Source: Candidatus Saccharimonadota bacterium (lineage in GTDB: Bacteria > Pseudomonadota > Gammaproteobacteria > Enterobacterales > Enterobacteriaceae). From it: DNA of 32,000 nt. Position 1 is the stretch's first letter. Every line of letters starts with the position of its first letter. The position numbers and the translations under genes were made by a program. Below the pieces are notes generated by a model, which saw only the letters and a list, made by a program, of their open reading frames with translations, did not search any database and was not told the origin of the DNA. The stretch covers positions 233,548 to 265,547 of the forward strand of contig CP024013.1 of NCBI GenBank assembly GCA_002688505.1. The letters are read 5' to 3'. This document shows, piece by piece, positions 1,623 to 32,000 of this stretch.

Positions 1623-3065
1623 ATGTGTAAATATGGGGTTATTTTGTTAAAAAATTTATGAAATAAATGTTTATTAGAGTTAAAAAAATATATATCTATT
1701 TATGAATTTAATATTTGGATATTACCCTTACAGGTATTAATTTATAATAATATTATAAATTTATATTCTCCTAATAAATTTGTTATTAAACATATTAAAA
1801 AAAATTATTTAATTTATATAAATAATTTTTTTTTAAAATATTGAAAATATAAAAGAATAAAACCTATTTTAAATTTTTTAATTGGAAGTATAAATAATAG
1901 TAATAAAAATAATTTATTTAAAAATAATTTTATTTATTTAAATAGTAAAAAAAATAAATATAATTCATATGATTTTAAAGAATTTAATAATTTTAATTTA
2001 TTAAAGAAGTATAGTTTTGATAATTTTATATATAATAAATCTAATATTTATGCATATAAAAAATCCATAAAAATATGTAATTTAAATAGTAATTTTAAGT
2101 ATTTATTTATTTATTCAAAAGTTGGTTTAGGTAAAACTCATTTATTAAATTCTATAGGTAATAGGATTAATTATTTATATAATGGTAAAAAAAGTATTTT
2201 TTATATAAATATGAAAGTCTTTTTAAGTAAAATTGAATATTTTTTATATAAAAATTTAATTGAAAATTTTATATTTTATTTAAAATCTTTTTCTATTTTT
2301 TTAATTGATGATATACAATTTTTATATAATAAAAAATTAATTCAAAATAAATTTTTAAATATATTTAATATGTTATTTAAATATAATAAATTTATAATTT
2401 TAACATCTAATTGTAATGTAAATAAATTAAAAGGTATAAATAATGAAATAATTTCTAAATTGTATTATAATTTTGTATTTATAAAAATTAATAATTGTGA
2501 TATAAATTTAAGGTATAAATTTTTAATTAGTAAGTGTAAATATATTAATTTTTGTTTAGATAAAAAAATATTATATTTTATATCTGAATATTTAAATTCA
2601 AATTTTTATGAATTAGAAAATATATTATATTTAATATATGTAAATGCTATTAATTTAAATTATATTAATAAAATAAATATTAATTTTATTAAATATATAT
2701 TATATAAATTTATTTTAAATAATAGTAATTATAATTTAAATGTTAAAATATATGATATACAAAAAGTAGTTTGTAATTATTATAATATAACTATTGATAA
2801 TTTATTGTCTAAATATCGTTATAAATCTTTTGTATGACCAAGACAAATATCAATAGCTATAAGTAAAAAATTAACTAATTATAGTTTAATAAAGTTAGGA
2901 TTATATTTTGGTGGTTTAAGTAATTCTTATATTTTATATTCTTATAATAAAATAAAAAAATTATATATGAATAATTCTAAAGTTAAATTAGAATTTAATA
3001 ATTTAATAAAACTTATTGTTTATTATAAAAATGAAATTTATTATAAAAAAAAAAAAATTAATTAA
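1623..3065 (+). CDS. dnaA: Chromosomal replication initiator DnaA (480 aa, three in-frame TGA)
   Basis: The N-terminus LWNKCLLELKKYISIYEFNIWILPLQ matches E. coli [26 protein letters not shown]. A Walker A-like motif is present (YSKVGLGKTHLLNSIGN). The C-terminus WPRQISIAISKKLTNYSLIKLGLYFGG...EFNNLIKLI matches [27 protein letters not shown]...DFSNLIRTL. TGAs are at 1659-1661, 1842-1844 and 2835-2837. The start at ATG 1623 is the best guess. Confidence 0.9.
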
Positions 3066-9510: not shown

Positions 9511-10830
<1,320 letters not shown>

Positions 10831-24446: not shown

Positions 24447-26248
<1,802 letters not shown>

Positions 26249-26342
26249 TTTAAAAAAATTTAAAATAATTTTATAATATATATTATAATATAATAATTAA
26301 TTTTTATTATTAAAATTTTAATAATTATAATGAAAAAATATT

Positions 26343-28016
26343 ATGCGTACACATTATTGTAATTCACTATCTTATAAAGATATTAATAAAAATGTTAAAT
26401 TATGTGGTTGAGTACAAGATATACGTTTATTAAAAAGTATAATTTTTATAGATCTTAAGGATTGTAGTGGTAATTTACAATTAATAATTTTAAGTGAAAA
26501 TATAAAATTATGAAATTTATCTAAAAGTTTAACTCATCAATCGTGTATAAAAGTTAATGGTATAGTAAAAAAAAAAAATAATAATAAAATTGAGATTTTA
26601 GTTAATAAATTAATTGTTTTTAATTATTCTAAATTATTACCATTAGATATATTTATTAAAAATTCTGAAAAGATAAAATTTAAATATCGTTATTTAGATT
26701 TTAGAAACAAAAAAGTTTTTAAAATATTTAAGATAAGATCAAAAGTTAAAAATATTATATATAATTATTTTGAAAAAAGAAATTTTTTAAATATAGAAAC
26801 TCCTTTTTTAAATAAATCATTTTTTGAAGGTTCTAGAGATTTTTTAGTACCTAGTAGATTAGGTATTGGAAAAAATTATTCTTTACCTCAATCTCCTCAA
26901 ATTTTTAAACAATTATTAATGATTGGTGGTATAGATAAATATTATCAAATAGTAAAATGTTTTAGAGATGAAGATTTAAGATCTGATAGGCAACCTGAAT
27001 TTACTCAATTAGATTTAGAATTATCTTTTGTTAATTTTAATTTTATTAAAAATTTAATAGATAAGTTAATTAATAAAATTTGATTTAATATTTTAGGTAT
27101 TAATTTATGTAAAGAAATTAAAGTTATTAAATATAGTAAATGTTTAGTTAATTATTCTACTGATAAACCTGATTTAAGAAATCCTATAAAATTTGAAAAA
27201 AATATATATAATTTTTTAGTTAATAATAAAATTTTATTTAAAAATTCTAATTATACAATATTATCAATTTTATTAATTAATAAAGATTTAAAATTTGATT
27301 TAAATGATTTTATTTTATTTTTATCTAATAAAAATATATATAATATTATATTTTTAAAAGTTTATAATTTTGAAAATAATAAATTTATTTATAAGTGATC
27401 TTATAATTATTGAAAGTTAGATGATAATTTAACTCAAAAATTATTATTTTTTTTAAAATCTCCTATTAATTGTGTATATTTTATATTTATAGGTAAATTA
27501 TTGGTATATTCTTATTTATTAAAAATAAGAAATTTTTTTTGTGATTATTTTAAATTATTTAATAAAAATAAATTTATTCCTATATGAATTAAAGATTTTC
27601 CTATGTTTTATTATGATAAACATAATAAAATTAATTCTTTTCATCATCTTTTTACTAAACCTAAAATATTAGATATAAAAGAGTTAAAAATTTGTAATGA
27701 TTATACTAAATTATTAGCAAATTCATATGATTTAGTAATTAATGGATTTGAAATAGGCAGTGGTTCTGAAAGAATTAATAATTATATTATACAAAAAGAA
27801 ATTTTTAATATATTAAAAATTAATAAAAATATTATTTATAAAGATTATGGATTTTTTTTAAATTCTTTAAAATATGGAACTCCACCACATATTGGAATTG
27901 CACTTGGATTAGATCGTATTATTATGTTACTAACTAAAAGAAATAATATTAGGGAAGTAATTGCTTTTCCTAAATCTACATCTGGTAAATGTTTTGTTAC
28001 TAATGCTCCAGATTAA
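26343..28016 (+). CDS. aspS: Aspartyl-tRNA synthetase (557 aa, about 7 in-frame TGA)
   Basis: MRTHYCNSL...VKLCGWVQDIR.L...IFIDLKDCSGNLQL, KYRYLDFRN, LNIETPFLNKS..EGSRDFLVPSR, YSLPQSPQIFKQLLMIGGIDKYYQIVKCFRDEDLRSDRQPEFTQLDLELSF, STDKPDLRNP, IWIKDFPMF, YDLVINGFEIGSGSERI and LKYGTPPHIGIALGLDRIIMLLT...NIREVIAFPK are colinear with E. coli AspS. Track ORF 27603..28016 is only the C-terminus. Confidence 0.95.
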
Positions 28017-28025
28017 TAATATTTT

Positions 28026-28511
28026 ATGAAAATAAGAATAATTGGTATAGATCCTGGTACTTATTGTACAGGATATAGTATTTTAGAATTTAACAATTTA
28101 AATAAATTAAATAGAAAGATATTTTTTATTTCTAGTGGTTGTATTAAAAGTAATTCGAAAATTTTTTCTTTAAGATTAAATAAAATTTATAGATCTATAT
28201 TAAATATATTATTTATATTTAAACCTTTTGTGTTAGCTATTGAAAAAACTTTTTTATTTAATAATTTAAATTCTAGTTTTAAATTAAATCAGGTTAATGC
28301 AGTTATAACTTTAGCTGCTGTCAGAAATTTTATTCCTATTTATGAATATAATATTAATAAAATAAAAAATTCTATTTTTAAAAGAACTAATATAAATAAA
28401 AAATATATTAATTTATTTTTCAAAGATTTTTTTAATATTAATAAAGATATAGATTTAAATATAACAGATTCTATAGCAGTTGCTATGTGTCATATATTTT
28501 TAAATTATTAA
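28026..28511 (+). CDS. ruvC: Holliday junction resolvase RuvC (161 aa)
   Basis: MKIRIIGIDPGTYCTGYSIL, SSGCIK, FSLRLNKIY, LAIEKTF, FKLNQVNAVITLAAV...IPIYEY and DSIAVAMCH align with E. coli ILGIDPGSRVTGYGVI, GSGCIR, LPSRLKLIY, FAIEQVF, LKLGQARGVAIVAAV..LPVFEY and DALAIAITHCH. By my alignment the residue matching E. coli D138 appears to be Asn; D7, E66 and D141 are conserved. Confidence 0.85.
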   Translation: MKIRIIGIDPGTYCTGYSILEFNNLNKLNRKIFFISSGCIKSNSKIFSLRLNKIYRSILNILFIFKPFVLAIEKTFLFNNLNSSFKLNQVNAVITLAAVRNFIPIYEYNINKIKNSIFKRTNINKKYINLFFKDFFNINKDIDLNITDSIAVAMCHIFLNY

Positions 28512-28599
28512 TTTTTAAATATTTTTAAAAAATATTTGATTTAAATTTTATATATGATAATCTATTTATATATTATATTTTATTTTAAAGGTAATTTTG

Positions 28600-28812
28600 A
28601 TGTCTACAAGAGTAAAAGGTAATGTTAAATGGTTTAATGAATCTAAAGGTTTTGGATTTATTACACCAGTTAATGGTGATAAAGATGTTTTTGTTCATTT
28701 TTCAGCTATTCAAAGTAGTGGATTTAAAACTTTAACTGAAGGTCAATCTGTTGAATTTGAAATTACTAATGGAGCTAAAGGTCCTTCTGCTACAAATGTA
28801 GTTCCTTTATAA
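28600..28812 (+). CDS. cspE: Cold-shock-domain protein of the CspC/CspE type (70 aa)
   Basis: [70 protein letters not shown] is near-identical to E. coli CspC/CspE (...[58 protein letters not shown]). Trp is encoded by TGG here. I prefer ATG at 28600 to the track's TTG at 28597. An AAAGG SD-like motif lies about 9 nt upstream. The assignment to C versus E is uncertain. Confidence 0.9.
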
Positions 28813-28880
28813 AATTAATATATAATTAATTTTATATAATTTAAAGTTTTTTAAATTATATTTTAAATTTTATTTAATTA

Positions 28881-28949
28881 GTGAATTATTTAAATATAAT
28901 AAATAACTTAAGTTTTTTAAATTTAATTATATATATTTAAATAATTCAC
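28881..28949. repeat. 18-bp-stem inverted repeat downstream of the csp gene (possible terminator or RNA structure)
   Basis: GTGAATTATTTAAATATA (28881-28898) and TATATTTAAATAATTCAC (28932-28949) are exact reverse complements, separated by 33 nt. Confidence 0.45.
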
Positions 28950-29101
28950 ATTTTATATATTTTATATAAGTTTAAAATTTTATTTATTAATAATATTTCT
29001 TTCTTTTTATTATTTAATAAAATTAATTTTTGTATTTAATATTATTTATTTTAAAAAATAAATTAAATAAAAACAATAAATCTTAAAATAATATTATAAT
29101 T

Positions 29102-29177
29102 TTATATATTATAATGTAACATATAATATAAATATATATATATATATTTATATTATATGTTACATTATAATATATAA
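29102..29177. repeat. Perfect 76-bp palindrome (38-bp arms, no spacer)
   Basis: I checked it base by base around the centre between 29139 and 29140. All 38 pairs are complementary, including the G/C-containing GTAAC (29116-29120) and GTTAC (29159-29163). The symmetry breaks at the pair 29101/29178. Confidence 0.9.
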
Positions 29178-29759
29178 TCAAAAAAGAAAAAATTAGACTG
29201 AAATTTATTTAAATCTCTATTAAAAAATAAAAAATTATTAAATATTTTAATATTTTCTATTCCTTCTAGTGGTTTATTTCAATATCTAATTGTTACATTA
29301 CCTTTTTTAACTAAAATAATTAATTTAAAATCTAATTATTCTTATTCTATATTAAATTTTTTTTGTACTTTTTTTTCTTCTATTGTTGGATTTTTATTAT
29401 ATAGTAGTTATATTTTTAATTTAATTAAAAATTATACTTTTATAATATGCTCTATATTATTATCAATTTTAATATTTAGTAAAAATTTTTTTTTACTTCT
29501 AATTATTAATTCAATATGTTTTGGTTTTTTAGCAGGTCATATAATTTGTATGCAAATAGAAATAAATAAATTTTCTTCATATTTTAATTTAGGAAAATAT
29601 ACAATTATACGTAATTCTATATCAAGTCTTTCTAAAATTTTATTTTCTTTATTATCTGTTTATTTTATAAAAAATTTTTCTTTATCATTAGTTTATATAT
29701 TTGGTTCTGGAATTTTATTTTTATTTCAAATTATATATTTTTTATTTAATTATTTATAA
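29178..29759 (+). pseudogene. 3' half of an MFS-like transporter gene (open frame with no start codon; about 6 TM segments)
   Basis: The frame is open from 29178 to TAA at 29757-29759. It reads ...LDWNLFKSLLKNKKLLNILIFSIPSSGLFQYLIVTLPFL...FGFLAGHIICMQIE...GSGILFLFQIIYFLFNYL*. The first 24 codons after LD are the repeat shared with the 5' half at 31901..31972. The first in-frame ATG is only at 29550 (track ORF 29550..29759). Confidence 0.6.
29190..29267 (+). repeat. Left copy of a perfect 78-bp direct repeat
   Basis: AAATTAGACTGAAATTTATTTAAATCTCTATTAAAAAATAAAAAATTATTAAATATTTTAATATTTTCTATTCCTTCT is identical to 31895..31972 (offset 2705 bp). Confidence 0.95.
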
Positions 29760-29843
29760 ATTTTATAAATTTTATTTTTATTAAAAATTTTATTACAAAC
29801 ATTATTATTTATATTTAAATACTTTAGTTCAGAAATAAAATTC

Positions 29844-29888
29844 GAAATTAATTAATTTTTAATATATATTTAAAAATTAATTAATTTC
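29844..29888. repeat. 19-bp-arm inverted repeat between the MFS 3' half and the 3' end of repA
   Basis: GAAATTAATTAATTTTTAA (29844-29862) and TTAAAAATTAATTAATTTC (29870-29888) are exact reverse complements, with a 7-nt loop. Confidence 0.7.
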
Positions 29889-30045
29889 TTAAAATTTTTA
29901 AATGAAAAATATATTAAAATTATAAGATAGTAAATAAAAAACAAAAAATTTTTACTAAAATATAAATATTTACATATAATATTATAACATAATTTTAATT
30001 AAAAAAAAGAATACCTCAAAAATTTAAAATTACTTTTAATAATTA

Positions 30046-31056
30046 TTAAAATAATAAAATTTTTTTACCTCTCTTTAATAAATTCTTATAATACATTTCA
30101 GAATTCTTAATTAATTCAGGATTCTCTTTTTTAAACTTTTTCTCTAAAAAAATTATTTTATAAGGCATTTGGGTTAAACTTCAATTAATAAATTTACAAT
30201 ACCAAAATTTTGATTTAGCTTTATTATTATTATTATTAATTAAAGAAGAAACAATCTTACTAGAATTAAAATTTTTATTATAACTAATATTTTTATTAAA
30301 AGATCTAAAAATATTTTTTGAATATTTATTTAAATTTTTACAATTACCATATAACTTAATATTTAATTTTATTTTATCTATAAGTTTATTTCCTAAAATC
30401 AATTTTCTTTCTTTAATCAATAAACATCTTAAAGATTTTTTTCTTAATAAATCAATACCTATAACTCTCATTTTAAGTAAATGTTTATTATTAAAATATA
30501 ACAAATTAGAAGTAAAATTATTATTTAATACTCATTTTTCATATTTATTTAAATAAAACCTTAACTCACCAACAGTAATATTTCTTGAAGTAAAAAATTT
30601 TTTAGTTAATCAAATACGTAAAGGTTTATTATGACCTGTATCAGGATTTTTACCTCTTAATACTATTATATATTTTAATTTTTCTAATACATGTAATGCA
30701 TTTAAAGGAGGATCATAAGATTTTCTTCCGTTACTATAAATATGTAACATATTCATTGAATGTGATATAATCTCAAATGGAGCTTTTATCTCAAATATAT
30801 AATTACTATATAAAGTGTAATTACAATATATAAGTAATGTACTAGATAAAACTGTAAGAGATTCACATAATTCTGATCTTACATGAATACGCATATTTAA
30901 TTTTCTACGTAATTTAATAAGATCATAATTATAGTGTCAATTATGTTTACTAATTTTATCAATTAATTTAGTTGTTATACCTCTAGGAATATTACATATA
31001 ATCTTAGGGGTATATCTTCTATGTATTTTATTAATTTTACTTTTTCTTAATAACAT
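30046..31056 (-). CDS. repA: Plasmid replication initiator, IncFII RepA-like (336 aa, four in-frame TGA)
   Basis: Track ORFs 30610..30894 and 30181..30504 share a frame with ATG at comp 31054-31056 and join through TGA. The product is MLLRKSKINKIHRRYTPK...KLIDKISKHNWHYNYDLIKLRRKLNMRIHVRSELCESL...SYDPPLNALHVLEKLKYIIVLRGKNPDTGHNKPLRIWLTKKFFTS.... From memory it parallels R1/R100 RepA (KLMEKAVGFTSRFDFAIHV...LRRRMPPVLRRRAIDAL...SITRATRALTFLSELGLITYQTEYDPLIGCYIPTDITFTSALF). I did not run a search, so the family call is moderate. Confidence 0.55.
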
Positions 31057-31270
31057 TTTTATTTTATTTATTTATAATTTATTAAAATTATTTAATTTAT
31101 TTAATTTATTATTTAATATTTTATTATTAAAAAATAAAATTTTATATTTTCATAATCTACATATTATAACTAAAAATAAAAATTTTTATAAAATTATTTT
31201 AAATAAAAATTTAATATAATTAATTTTTATATTAATATTACATAAATTAAAAATATAATATATTAAAACT

Positions 31271-32000
31271 ATGATTAACAAATTAATAAAAAATAAAAAT
31301 ATTAATTACTATATTACTAATATAATAGTAGCTTCAATAGAATGTGTACAAAATACAATTTTAGTTTGATTAGTATTTAATTATACAAATAATAATTTAT
31401 ATTCTATTAGTTTAATAAATTTTGCAAATTATTTTCCTATGGTAATATCAATATTTACATTTATTTCAATAGCAGACAAAATTAATCCTTTATATCAATA
31501 TTATATAAATAATTTATTTTCTTTAATAATATCATTTTTAATGTTCTTATTATTTTTAATAAAACCAAGAATAAAAATATTTTTAATAATAATATTTATA
31601 TTACAAATAAGTTTCTCATTTATTAGAACATTAAATAAAACTAATTTTAATAAAATTACTAAAATTTTATTTAAAAAAAGTTCTATAGACAAAACATTTA
31701 AAATGTTGCTTTCTTTAATACAAATTTCACAGACTGTAGGTAATATTATAGGTAGTTTATTTATAGCACAAAATATACCTTTATTTGGTTTTATATTTAC
31801 ATTTTTTATGTATAGCATTAGTTTATTTTTATCATATTTTTTATTAAAAAAATATAAAAACATTTTCATTAATAAAAATAAAAAAAATAAAATTAAATTA
31901 GACTGAAATTTATTTAAATCTCTATTAAAAAATAAAAAATTATTAAATATTTTAATATTTTCTATTCCTTCTCAAAAAAAAAAAATTATTGAAAAAAAAA
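31271..32000 (+). CDS. 5' half of the MFS-like transporter gene; after the 78-bp repeat it runs into a Lys-rich tail and off the window
   Basis: ATG at 31271. The product is MINKLIKNKNINYYITNIIVASIECVQNTILVWLVFNYT...PMVISIFTFISIADKINP...IAQNIPLFGFIFTFFMYSISLFLSYFLLKKY...KLDWNLFKSLLKNKKLLNILIFSIPS, about 6 TM segments then a central loop. After 31972 it reads QKKKIIEKK instead of the continuation found at 29268. The MFS assignment rests on topology and loose similarity to EntS/MFS_3-type transporters. Confidence 0.55.
31895..31972 (+). repeat. Right copy of the perfect 78-bp direct repeat
   Basis: Identical to 29190..29267. The flanks diverge on both sides (the preceding base is T versus A; the following base is C versus A). 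Confidence 0.95.

Follow-up and report, generated by a model that had tools for sequence, protein, structure and literature searches.

A p2-type plasmid of 'Candidatus Stammera capleta', most probably a free circle, written into a chromosome record beside a candidate hairpin telomere

The DNA analysed here (the window, 32,000 nt of contig CP024013.1) is, judging by its sequence, a slice of the 271,175-bp record of 'Candidatus Stammera capleta', a gammaproteobacterial foregut symbiont of tortoise beetles; this size would be that of the Stammera genome published first. Near its right-hand end, a gene for a plasmid-type replication protein (Rep) and a membrane transporter gene cut into two parts are found between exact direct repeats, close to a long perfect palindrome. 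A first reading of the letters alone (the original prediction) had interpreted this arrangement as a small replicon integrated into the chromosome. Our results indicate instead that the segment 29190-31972 is most probably a free, circular plasmid of 2,705 bp, of the Stammera p2 type, misjoined to the chromosome contig during assembly.

The direct repeat has its two copies at 29190-29267 and 31895-31972, spaced by 2705 nt; they agree at all 78 nt, and the first base beyond either end is a mismatch. In 20 simulated windows (Markov-1), the longest exact repeat measures 19-25 nt. When 31271-31972 is joined to 29268-29759, an uninterrupted open reading frame (ORF) of 397 codons is obtained, and a circle of exactly 2705 bp restores the transporter gene. 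The exact repeats, the split transporter that can be rebuilt in frame and the circularly permuted small replicon, with its replication gene and its transporter of the MFS type, had all been described in the original prediction and all stand, the 2705-bp circle being closed.

The circle is seen as such in an independent assembly of the same strain, namely the Logan contigs of run SRR6147586, which derive from a k=31 graph and are 100% identical to the window. One of these contigs (L009) is 2735 bp long, of which 30 nt are a self-overlap and 2705 bp match the unit of the window without a single mismatch. Its breakpoint is located at window positions 31274-31303, off the repeat edges, so that the 78-mer is not a branching point of that graph. 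Had the plasmid been integrated between 78-bp repeats, the repeat edges would necessarily have produced branches and contig breaks in a k=31 graph; in the Logan contigs of this run, no branch is found at 29102, 29190, 29267, 31895 or 31972. This way of reading contigs was calibrated on a sister strain, whose contig L032 (2696+30) is the deposited circular plasmid CP144845.1, with 0 mismatches. On the chromosomal side, another contig (L007) is 100% identical to window positions 25899-29154 and passes 29102 without any break. It ends at the palindrome centre plus 15 nt, that is (31-1)/2, as a fold-back gives at k=31 and unlike a palindrome with two different flanks. As this contig ends at 29154, the join 29177/29178 is absent from that graph.

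The lengths measured in the record itself fit another k value, 77. The arms of the palindrome are of 38 nt, or (77-1)/2; the repeat is of 78 nt, or 77 plus one extra base matching by chance (P ~0.29 from the base composition); and a poly-T tract located further left in the window is of 80 nt, or 77+3. One assembler in wide use has 77 as its highest default k, and leaves an overlap of k nt on circular contigs. The following course of events can be proposed. The record would be a composite of de Bruijn contigs made at k=77: that of the chromosome would end at 29177 in a fold-back palindrome, and that of the plasmid, with its terminal overlap untrimmed, would have been placed after it. Repeat copy 1 is thus interpreted as the untrimmed 77-nt overlap of a circular contig plus the one chance base.

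We looked for traces of the plasmid at the corresponding site of other Stammera chromosomes. Among 13 chromosomal loci around this site, from at least 9 strains, neither a copy of the 78-mer nor an MFS or Rep remnant was found, matches to the 78-mer being of low complexity and of at most 33 nt. In the relatives, nothing is inserted at this site: in some, the palindrome is followed within ~20-30 nt by telK, a gene for a TelK-type protelomerase considered below, and in others the record ends there. The composition of the unit also differs from that of its surroundings: its GC skew is -0.20, whereas the chromosomal part of the window (1-29177), divided into eight 4-kb bins, has a positive skew of +0.16 to +0.31 in seven of them. 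Finally, the 19 other Stammera homologues of Rep (52-86% identity) are all carried by contigs of 2.7-9.7 kb. The window's own Rep is the only one of the 20 to be found on a chromosome-sized contig, which is the 271,175-bp record: Rep (P0001) and the GapA of the strain (P0058) are on one and the same NCBI contig.

These results have to be weighed against a genuine integration, in which a slightly longer-than-unit copy of the plasmid would have been joined beside the telomere palindrome, in at least part of the population, by illegitimate or microhomology-mediated recombination within A-rich DNA; excision of the circle through the 78-bp repeats would then be possible. Several points speak for it and against a misjoin. 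The 12 nt that precede the unit and the 28 nt that follow it are not accounted for by a plain concatenation of two contigs. They are both A-rich and much alike (TC-A6-G-A6-TTA versus TC-A12-TTA), which could hint at a duplicated target, and by eye the 12-nt filler can be read in frame with the transporter loop. A preprint on Stammera genomes reports plasmids integrated into the chromosome in some species, making integration plausible in principle. Furthermore, the same-strain contig carrying telK (L022) ends 27 nt before this gene, short of the tel core, so that further sequence may lie there; the cleaning of the Logan graph could have dropped a minority integrated form; and both k=77 and the assembler are themselves deduced. 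The filler and the tail might represent tips of the graph, filled gaps or the beginning of a further homopolymer join, or else be a weak hint of a real junction; both gave low-complexity matches only, among all the fetched loci and the p1 plasmid of the sister strain.

We nevertheless consider a genuine integration unlikely. The independent assembly is devoid of branches at the repeat edges and at 29102, the junction falls exactly at the palindrome centre plus 38 nt, which is the position of a k=77 contig end, no chromosomal homology for a Campbell event was found in the 13 loci, and every other Stammera rep gene found is on a small contig. In addition, nothing can lie past the palindrome if it is a hairpin end. 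The Campbell-type integration put forward in the original prediction is thus not borne out, given a same-strain assembly that closes the circle, a chromosome contig that stops in the palindrome, the lack of a chromosomal target among the loci read and the k=77 geometry of the junction. The best fit is rather the assembler misjoin of a free plasmid, which the same prediction had named as the outcome that would count against it.

Another possibility is that the 78-bp segment is truly shared with another replicon (p1 or a multimer), that the assembler looped p2 once through it, and that the flanks belong to this other replicon. The succession of flank, repeat, loop, repeat and flank is indeed what a loop resolver would output, and a second plasmid is present in sister strains (CP144844.1, 5574 bp). 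However, this p1 plasmid gave only low-complexity matches to p2 and to the flanks, the contig L009 closes without any branch, and a repeat length of exactly k+1 would be a coincidence. A shared segment is hence very improbable, and a misjoined free circle remains the reading that we retain.

The plasmid type is already known and public. A minicircle carrying RepA and an MFS transporter had been thought undescribed in the original prediction, but six stand-alone plasmids with these two genes, of 2.5-2.75 kb, are deposited, and the preprint reports 1-2 plasmids of 2.5-9 kb in most Stammera strains. The unit of the window aligns end to end (100% of the query, 79-83% identity) with CP144845.1, CP144784.1, CP043982.1 and CP145601.1, and nearly end to end with CP144812.1 (96% covered) and CP043977.1 (91% covered, 74.5% identity). 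It is also found inside Stammera plasmids of ~9 kb, and 33 PLSDB records match altogether. The five small plasmids for which ORFs were listed encode just Rep and an intact MFS transporter of 395-409 aa, and the sixth, CP144845.1, has both genes too. When compared to five deposited p2 plasmids, the proteins of the window are 60-71% (Rep) and 62-75% (MFS) identical. The p2 plasmids, such as pStCm2 (CP144845.1, 2696 bp), are circular and have the same two genes, the same convergent layout and the same block downstream of rep. In contrast to these records, the copy of the present strain is not separate, but is included in the 271,175-bp 'chromosome' sequence, 78 nt of it being redundant. Among the p2 records, CP043982.1 (L011), from the same laboratory as the 271,175-bp record and deposited as a 'complete' sequence of 2750 bp, has an identical start and end of 141 nt; its true circle is of 2609 bp, the remainder being an untrimmed assembler overlap.

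The MFS transporter, a protein of 12 helices, is the conserved cargo of this plasmid, whose replication is expected to be driven by Rep, in theta mode, via the host replisome. Small Rep-driven plasmids with a host-relevant cargo, pLeu and pTrp, are carried by Buchnera, another insect symbiont with a reduced genome. Unlike that of pLeu and pTrp, the Stammera cargo is a transporter and not a set of biosynthetic genes, and the membership of its Rep in the IncFII group is unproven. The Stammera preprint likewise compares the Stammera plasmids to those of Buchnera.

The record shows a second, independent sign of mis-assembly. The poly-T tract mentioned above and the ~70 nt after it, which resemble no relative, interrupt argS, which is found in the window as two ORFs of 314 and 254 aa, versus a single ORF of 567-569 aa in five relatives. 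This interruption looks like a misjoin via a homopolymer k-mer. In sister strains, the chromosomes are of 258-263 kb, p1 is of 5.6 kb and p2 of 2.7 kb, and the sum of the three comes close to the 271 kb of the record, which is only suggestive. Sequences of different replicons are therefore combined in the 271,175-bp record, which has at least one further mis-assembly, in argS, and any claim on gene order or 'integration' drawn from it is unsafe. A RepA and MFS minicircle integrated into the chromosome, if true, would be a novelty among symbiont plasmids; the results point to a known plasmid type and to an artefact of the record.

Rep is predicted, from its alignment, to be a replication protein belonging to an Enterobacterales family usually annotated 'Replication protein'. 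This family is present in 409 PLSDB plasmids, from Serratia, Providencia, Yersinia, Edwardsiella, Erwinia and others, and among its replicons are those of Serratia, Yersinia ruckeri (pYR4), Edwardsiella, Erwinia amylovora (plasmid 2) and Photorhabdus/Xenorhabdus. Outside Stammera, the closest relatives are 'Replication protein' sequences of Photorhabdus and Xenorhabdus, with 40-43% identity (43% for Photorhabdus). The homology extends over the full length, with 61 invariant columns in the family alignment, three of them Trp, and the gene occupies the position of a plasmid rep.

The label 'IncFII-like' given to this gene in the original prediction could not be sustained. The window protein is matched by no Pfam or NCBIfam model, and PF02387 (IncFII_repA) gave no match at E<=1 among 14 members of the family. 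An alignment of the family with IncFII RepA (hhalign) has a probability of 0.8% (E=0.068) over 59 columns, in a putative winged-helix region; the RepA sequence used for this comparison was validated by its 99.6% identity to E. coli plasmids. By sequence, no significant relative of Rep was found in PDB, and its AlphaFold model (pLDDT 75) has no significant PDB match with Foldseek, but only weak winged-helix matches. As to the copy-number control known from IncFII replicons, no CopA-like RNA was detected (Rfam, without any match at E<=1 in 28800-32000), and the 2.7-kb plasmid has no copB gene. The 336-aa ORF is a homologue of the Enterobacterales 'Replication protein' family and not a match to the IncFII_repA profile. 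One hint of IncFII comes from E. amylovora plasmid 2, in which the Rep homologue is directly preceded by a gene bearing the annotation 'replication regulatory protein RepA', a layout that recalls the copB-repA arrangement of IncFII.

The rebuilt 397-aa transporter is matched by the Pfam model MFS_1 with E=3.2e-7, but at 30 bits, under the gathering cut-off of 33.4. Among its orthologues, two reach 45 and 48.8 bits, two are below the cut-off and one is without match. As two orthologues are well recognised, the orthologue group as a whole is, on the strength of these profile scores, MFS.

A non-coding block is conserved downstream of rep and is probably the origin or a Rep-binding site. This block, given as 36-38 nt with two copies of the AAATTAATTAATTT palindrome, contains a core, TTTAGTTCAGAAATAAAATTCGAAATTAATTAATTT, that six of the seven small Stammera plasmids under comparison share without any difference, against an overall identity to the window unit of only 79-83%. 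In plasmid R1 the origin also lies downstream of rep, as for the candidate origin here.

The palindrome in which the chromosome contig stops raises a question of its own. No other palindrome of the window has arms exceeding 15 nt, and the maximum in simulations is 13. It had gone unmentioned in the original prediction, and is composed of a 24-nt half-site, GTAACATATAATATAAATATATAT, conserved in close relatives, and of 14 nt mirroring the csp-side flank. In our reading, it is where a k=77 contig ends by folding back on itself at a hairpin telomere. In three relatives, both the GC and the TA skew reverse sign exactly at the palindrome, which is therefore the site where a terminus would be. The gene adjoining it, where it can be seen, encodes the muzzle, catalytic and stirrup domains of TelK. 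From this assembly geometry and gene content, it is reasonably probable that the Stammera chromosomes (0.21-0.33 Mb) are linear, with covalently closed hairpin telomeres formed at a clade-conserved terminus site, where a phage-derived protelomerase of the TelK type is encoded beside its palindromic target. The physical capture of the plasmid beside such a telomere, in some cells, is much less probable.

The palindrome could alternatively be an ordinary internal inverted repeat of 76 bp (a terminator, for instance, or a site left unprocessed), the chromosome being circular and the window colinear with it. All public records treat the Stammera chromosomes as circular, the depositors having verified 'complete single-chromosomal' genomes and set oriC, as stated in the preprint; moreover, CP043973.1 and CP043975.1 run from csp through one palindrome to telK. 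Such an ordinary repeat is nonetheless scarcely probable, as the arm length follows the k value of the assembler, with 15 nt beyond the centre when k is 31, arms of 38 nt in the window and of 71 nt in a MEGAHIT record (k up to 141). The 71-nt arms are those of one palindrome of CP043989.1 (L026) and are consistent with k=141; MEGAHIT was used for later Stammera genomes, according to the preprint. In addition, L001, L003 and L026 contain two adjacent palindromes, each mirroring its own flank, and in CP144771.1 (L027) a 115-nt arm mirrors the telK flank; these tel-site palindromes are located at 10557-10702 (L001), 10376-10521 (L003), 1268-1482 (L026) and 1286-1516 (L027). In two of these records, CP144843.1 and CP144810.1 (L003), the side-by-side palindromes have NNNNN between them. 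Finally, an intact TelK gene adjoins the site. Fold-back overhangs in other Logan contigs are of 5, 9 and 10 nt, and not of 15 nt; they were not counted as support and are attributed to cores common to both ends or to internal TA repeats.

The hairpin-telomere reading is consistent with the protelomerase itself. The TelK of the same strain, encoded outside the window, is recognised by the Pfam model ResT-TelK_cat (E=1.2e-23) and is related to the TelK of phiKO2 (PDB 2V6E, E=3.9e-89). Its motifs SGRRMIEI, GQVK, KDSRSIYAR, ILGH and YYKQF align to what we take to be the catalytic R, K, R, H and Y of TelK, all of them conserved. At least 17 Stammera chromosomes, 213-314 kb in size, carry homologues. 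Outside Stammera, the nearest relatives are protelomerases of Xenorhabdus (34% identity), from which the Stammera proteins differ by their size of ~500 aa, without the C-terminal PF22853 domain. As in the protelomerase-tel systems of N15 and phiKO2, a TelK homologue is encoded beside a palindromic site, which in Stammera coincides with the skew switch of the chromosome. In contrast to these systems, that of Stammera is borne by a symbiont chromosome of 0.21-0.33 Mb and not by a phage or plasmid, and its hairpin ends are putative. This comparison, which bears on the junction and not on the plasmid, extends to E. coli linearised with TelN/tos. The second telomere of the strain is not seen in L022.

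A literature search, whose coverage did not extend to the Stammera papers of 2017 and 2020, gave no publication that connects Stammera to a protelomerase or to palindromes; one paper matched in a search on telomeres and linear chromosomes mentions Stammera for its genome size only, without its topology. If confirmed, these chromosomes would be, as far as we know, among the smallest linear bacterial chromosomes, and a domesticated phage enzyme would have been retained through extreme genome reduction. One may speculate that linearisation at the terminus, if true, might replace dimer resolution and decatenation in so small a genome.

Several observations on the tel site and its gene can be added. 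A few Stammera genomes have telK either as two separate ORFs (L003, which is CP144810.1, 10537-12053) or as a gene for only ~320 aa (P0044, P0047), owing either to lineage decay or to homopolymer sequencing errors. The gene order at the site also varies by lineage: in L027 (CP144771.1, 1115-3661), a truncated csp stands to the left of the NNNNN stretch, while a complete csp in inverted orientation follows telK, and in L026 (CP043989.1, 32-3385) the order is gapA, two palindromes, telK and an inverted csp. These arrangements may correspond to terminal inverted repeats or to telomere-proximal rearrangements. As the nearest relatives outside Stammera of both Rep and the protelomerase belong to Photorhabdus/Xenorhabdus, this may indicate the source of both mobile-element genes.

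Table 1. Features of the junction region and of related loci (window positions, unless a contig is given).
Feature	Position	Strand	Remarks
80-nt poly-T, then ~70 nt unlike any relative	25489-25568 (to 25639)	.	splits argS
csp, cold-shock protein, 70 aa	28600-28812	+	Pfam CSD; last chromosomal gene before the junction
Perfect 76-bp palindrome	29102-29177, centre 29139/29140	.	38-nt arms; 12 nt left of the repeat
A-rich filler, 12 nt, TCAAAAAAGAAA	29178-29189	.	between palindrome and plasmid
Repeat copy 1, MFS central loop	29190-29267	+	identical to 31895-31972
MFS 3' part, codons 235-397 and stop	29268-29759	+	directly follows the 5' part in L009 and every deposited p2 plasmid
Conserved non-coding block, ACTTTAGTTCAGAAATAAAATTCGAAATTAATTAATTT	29821-29887	.	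downstream of rep; two 14-nt palindromes, AAATTAATTAATTT, at 29845-29858 and 29874-29887
rep, 336-aa plasmid replication protein (predicted)	30046-31056	-	code 4 ORF; 100% identical to P0001
rep/MFS divergent intergenic region	31057-31270	.	from gene layout; promoters putative
MFS 5' part, codons 1-234	31271-31972	+	last 78 nt (31895-31972) are repeat copy 2
A-rich tail, 28 nt, CAAAAAAAAAAAATTATTGAAAAAAAAA	31973-32000	.	non-plasmid, past the unit
telK of the same strain	L022 2886-4406	.	intact, 506 aa; outside the window

The chromosomal part of the window is 80-88% identical to the 'Candidatus Stammera capleta' sequences CP144843.1, CP043973.1, CP144810.1, CP043975.1 and CP043978.1, and contains, in this order, mnmE, rnpA, dnaA, dnaN, gyrB, and further on argS, aspS, ruvC and csp. 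The latter gene precedes the palindrome in most relatives read, as it does in the window. The dnaA gene (1623-3065) is located ~27 kb from the palindrome; no lasting switch of the GC skew is observed there, and dnaA is therefore not a marker of the origin.

The G+C content of the window is 14.8%. In its long ORFs, TGA is read as Trp, with 46 TGA versus 5 TGG codons. In rep, TGA is found at codons 40, 149, 175 and 292, and in the family alignment codons 40, 149 and 292 correspond to invariant Trp columns, including in bacterial homologues that use the standard code. TGA is thus a Trp codon in a gammaproteobacterium, and ORF listings made with table 11 break up its genes. A second, shorter perfect palindrome, of 30 bp with 15-nt arms (simulation maximum 13), is located at ~786-815 (centre 801), inside an ORF on the minus strand (292-1077).

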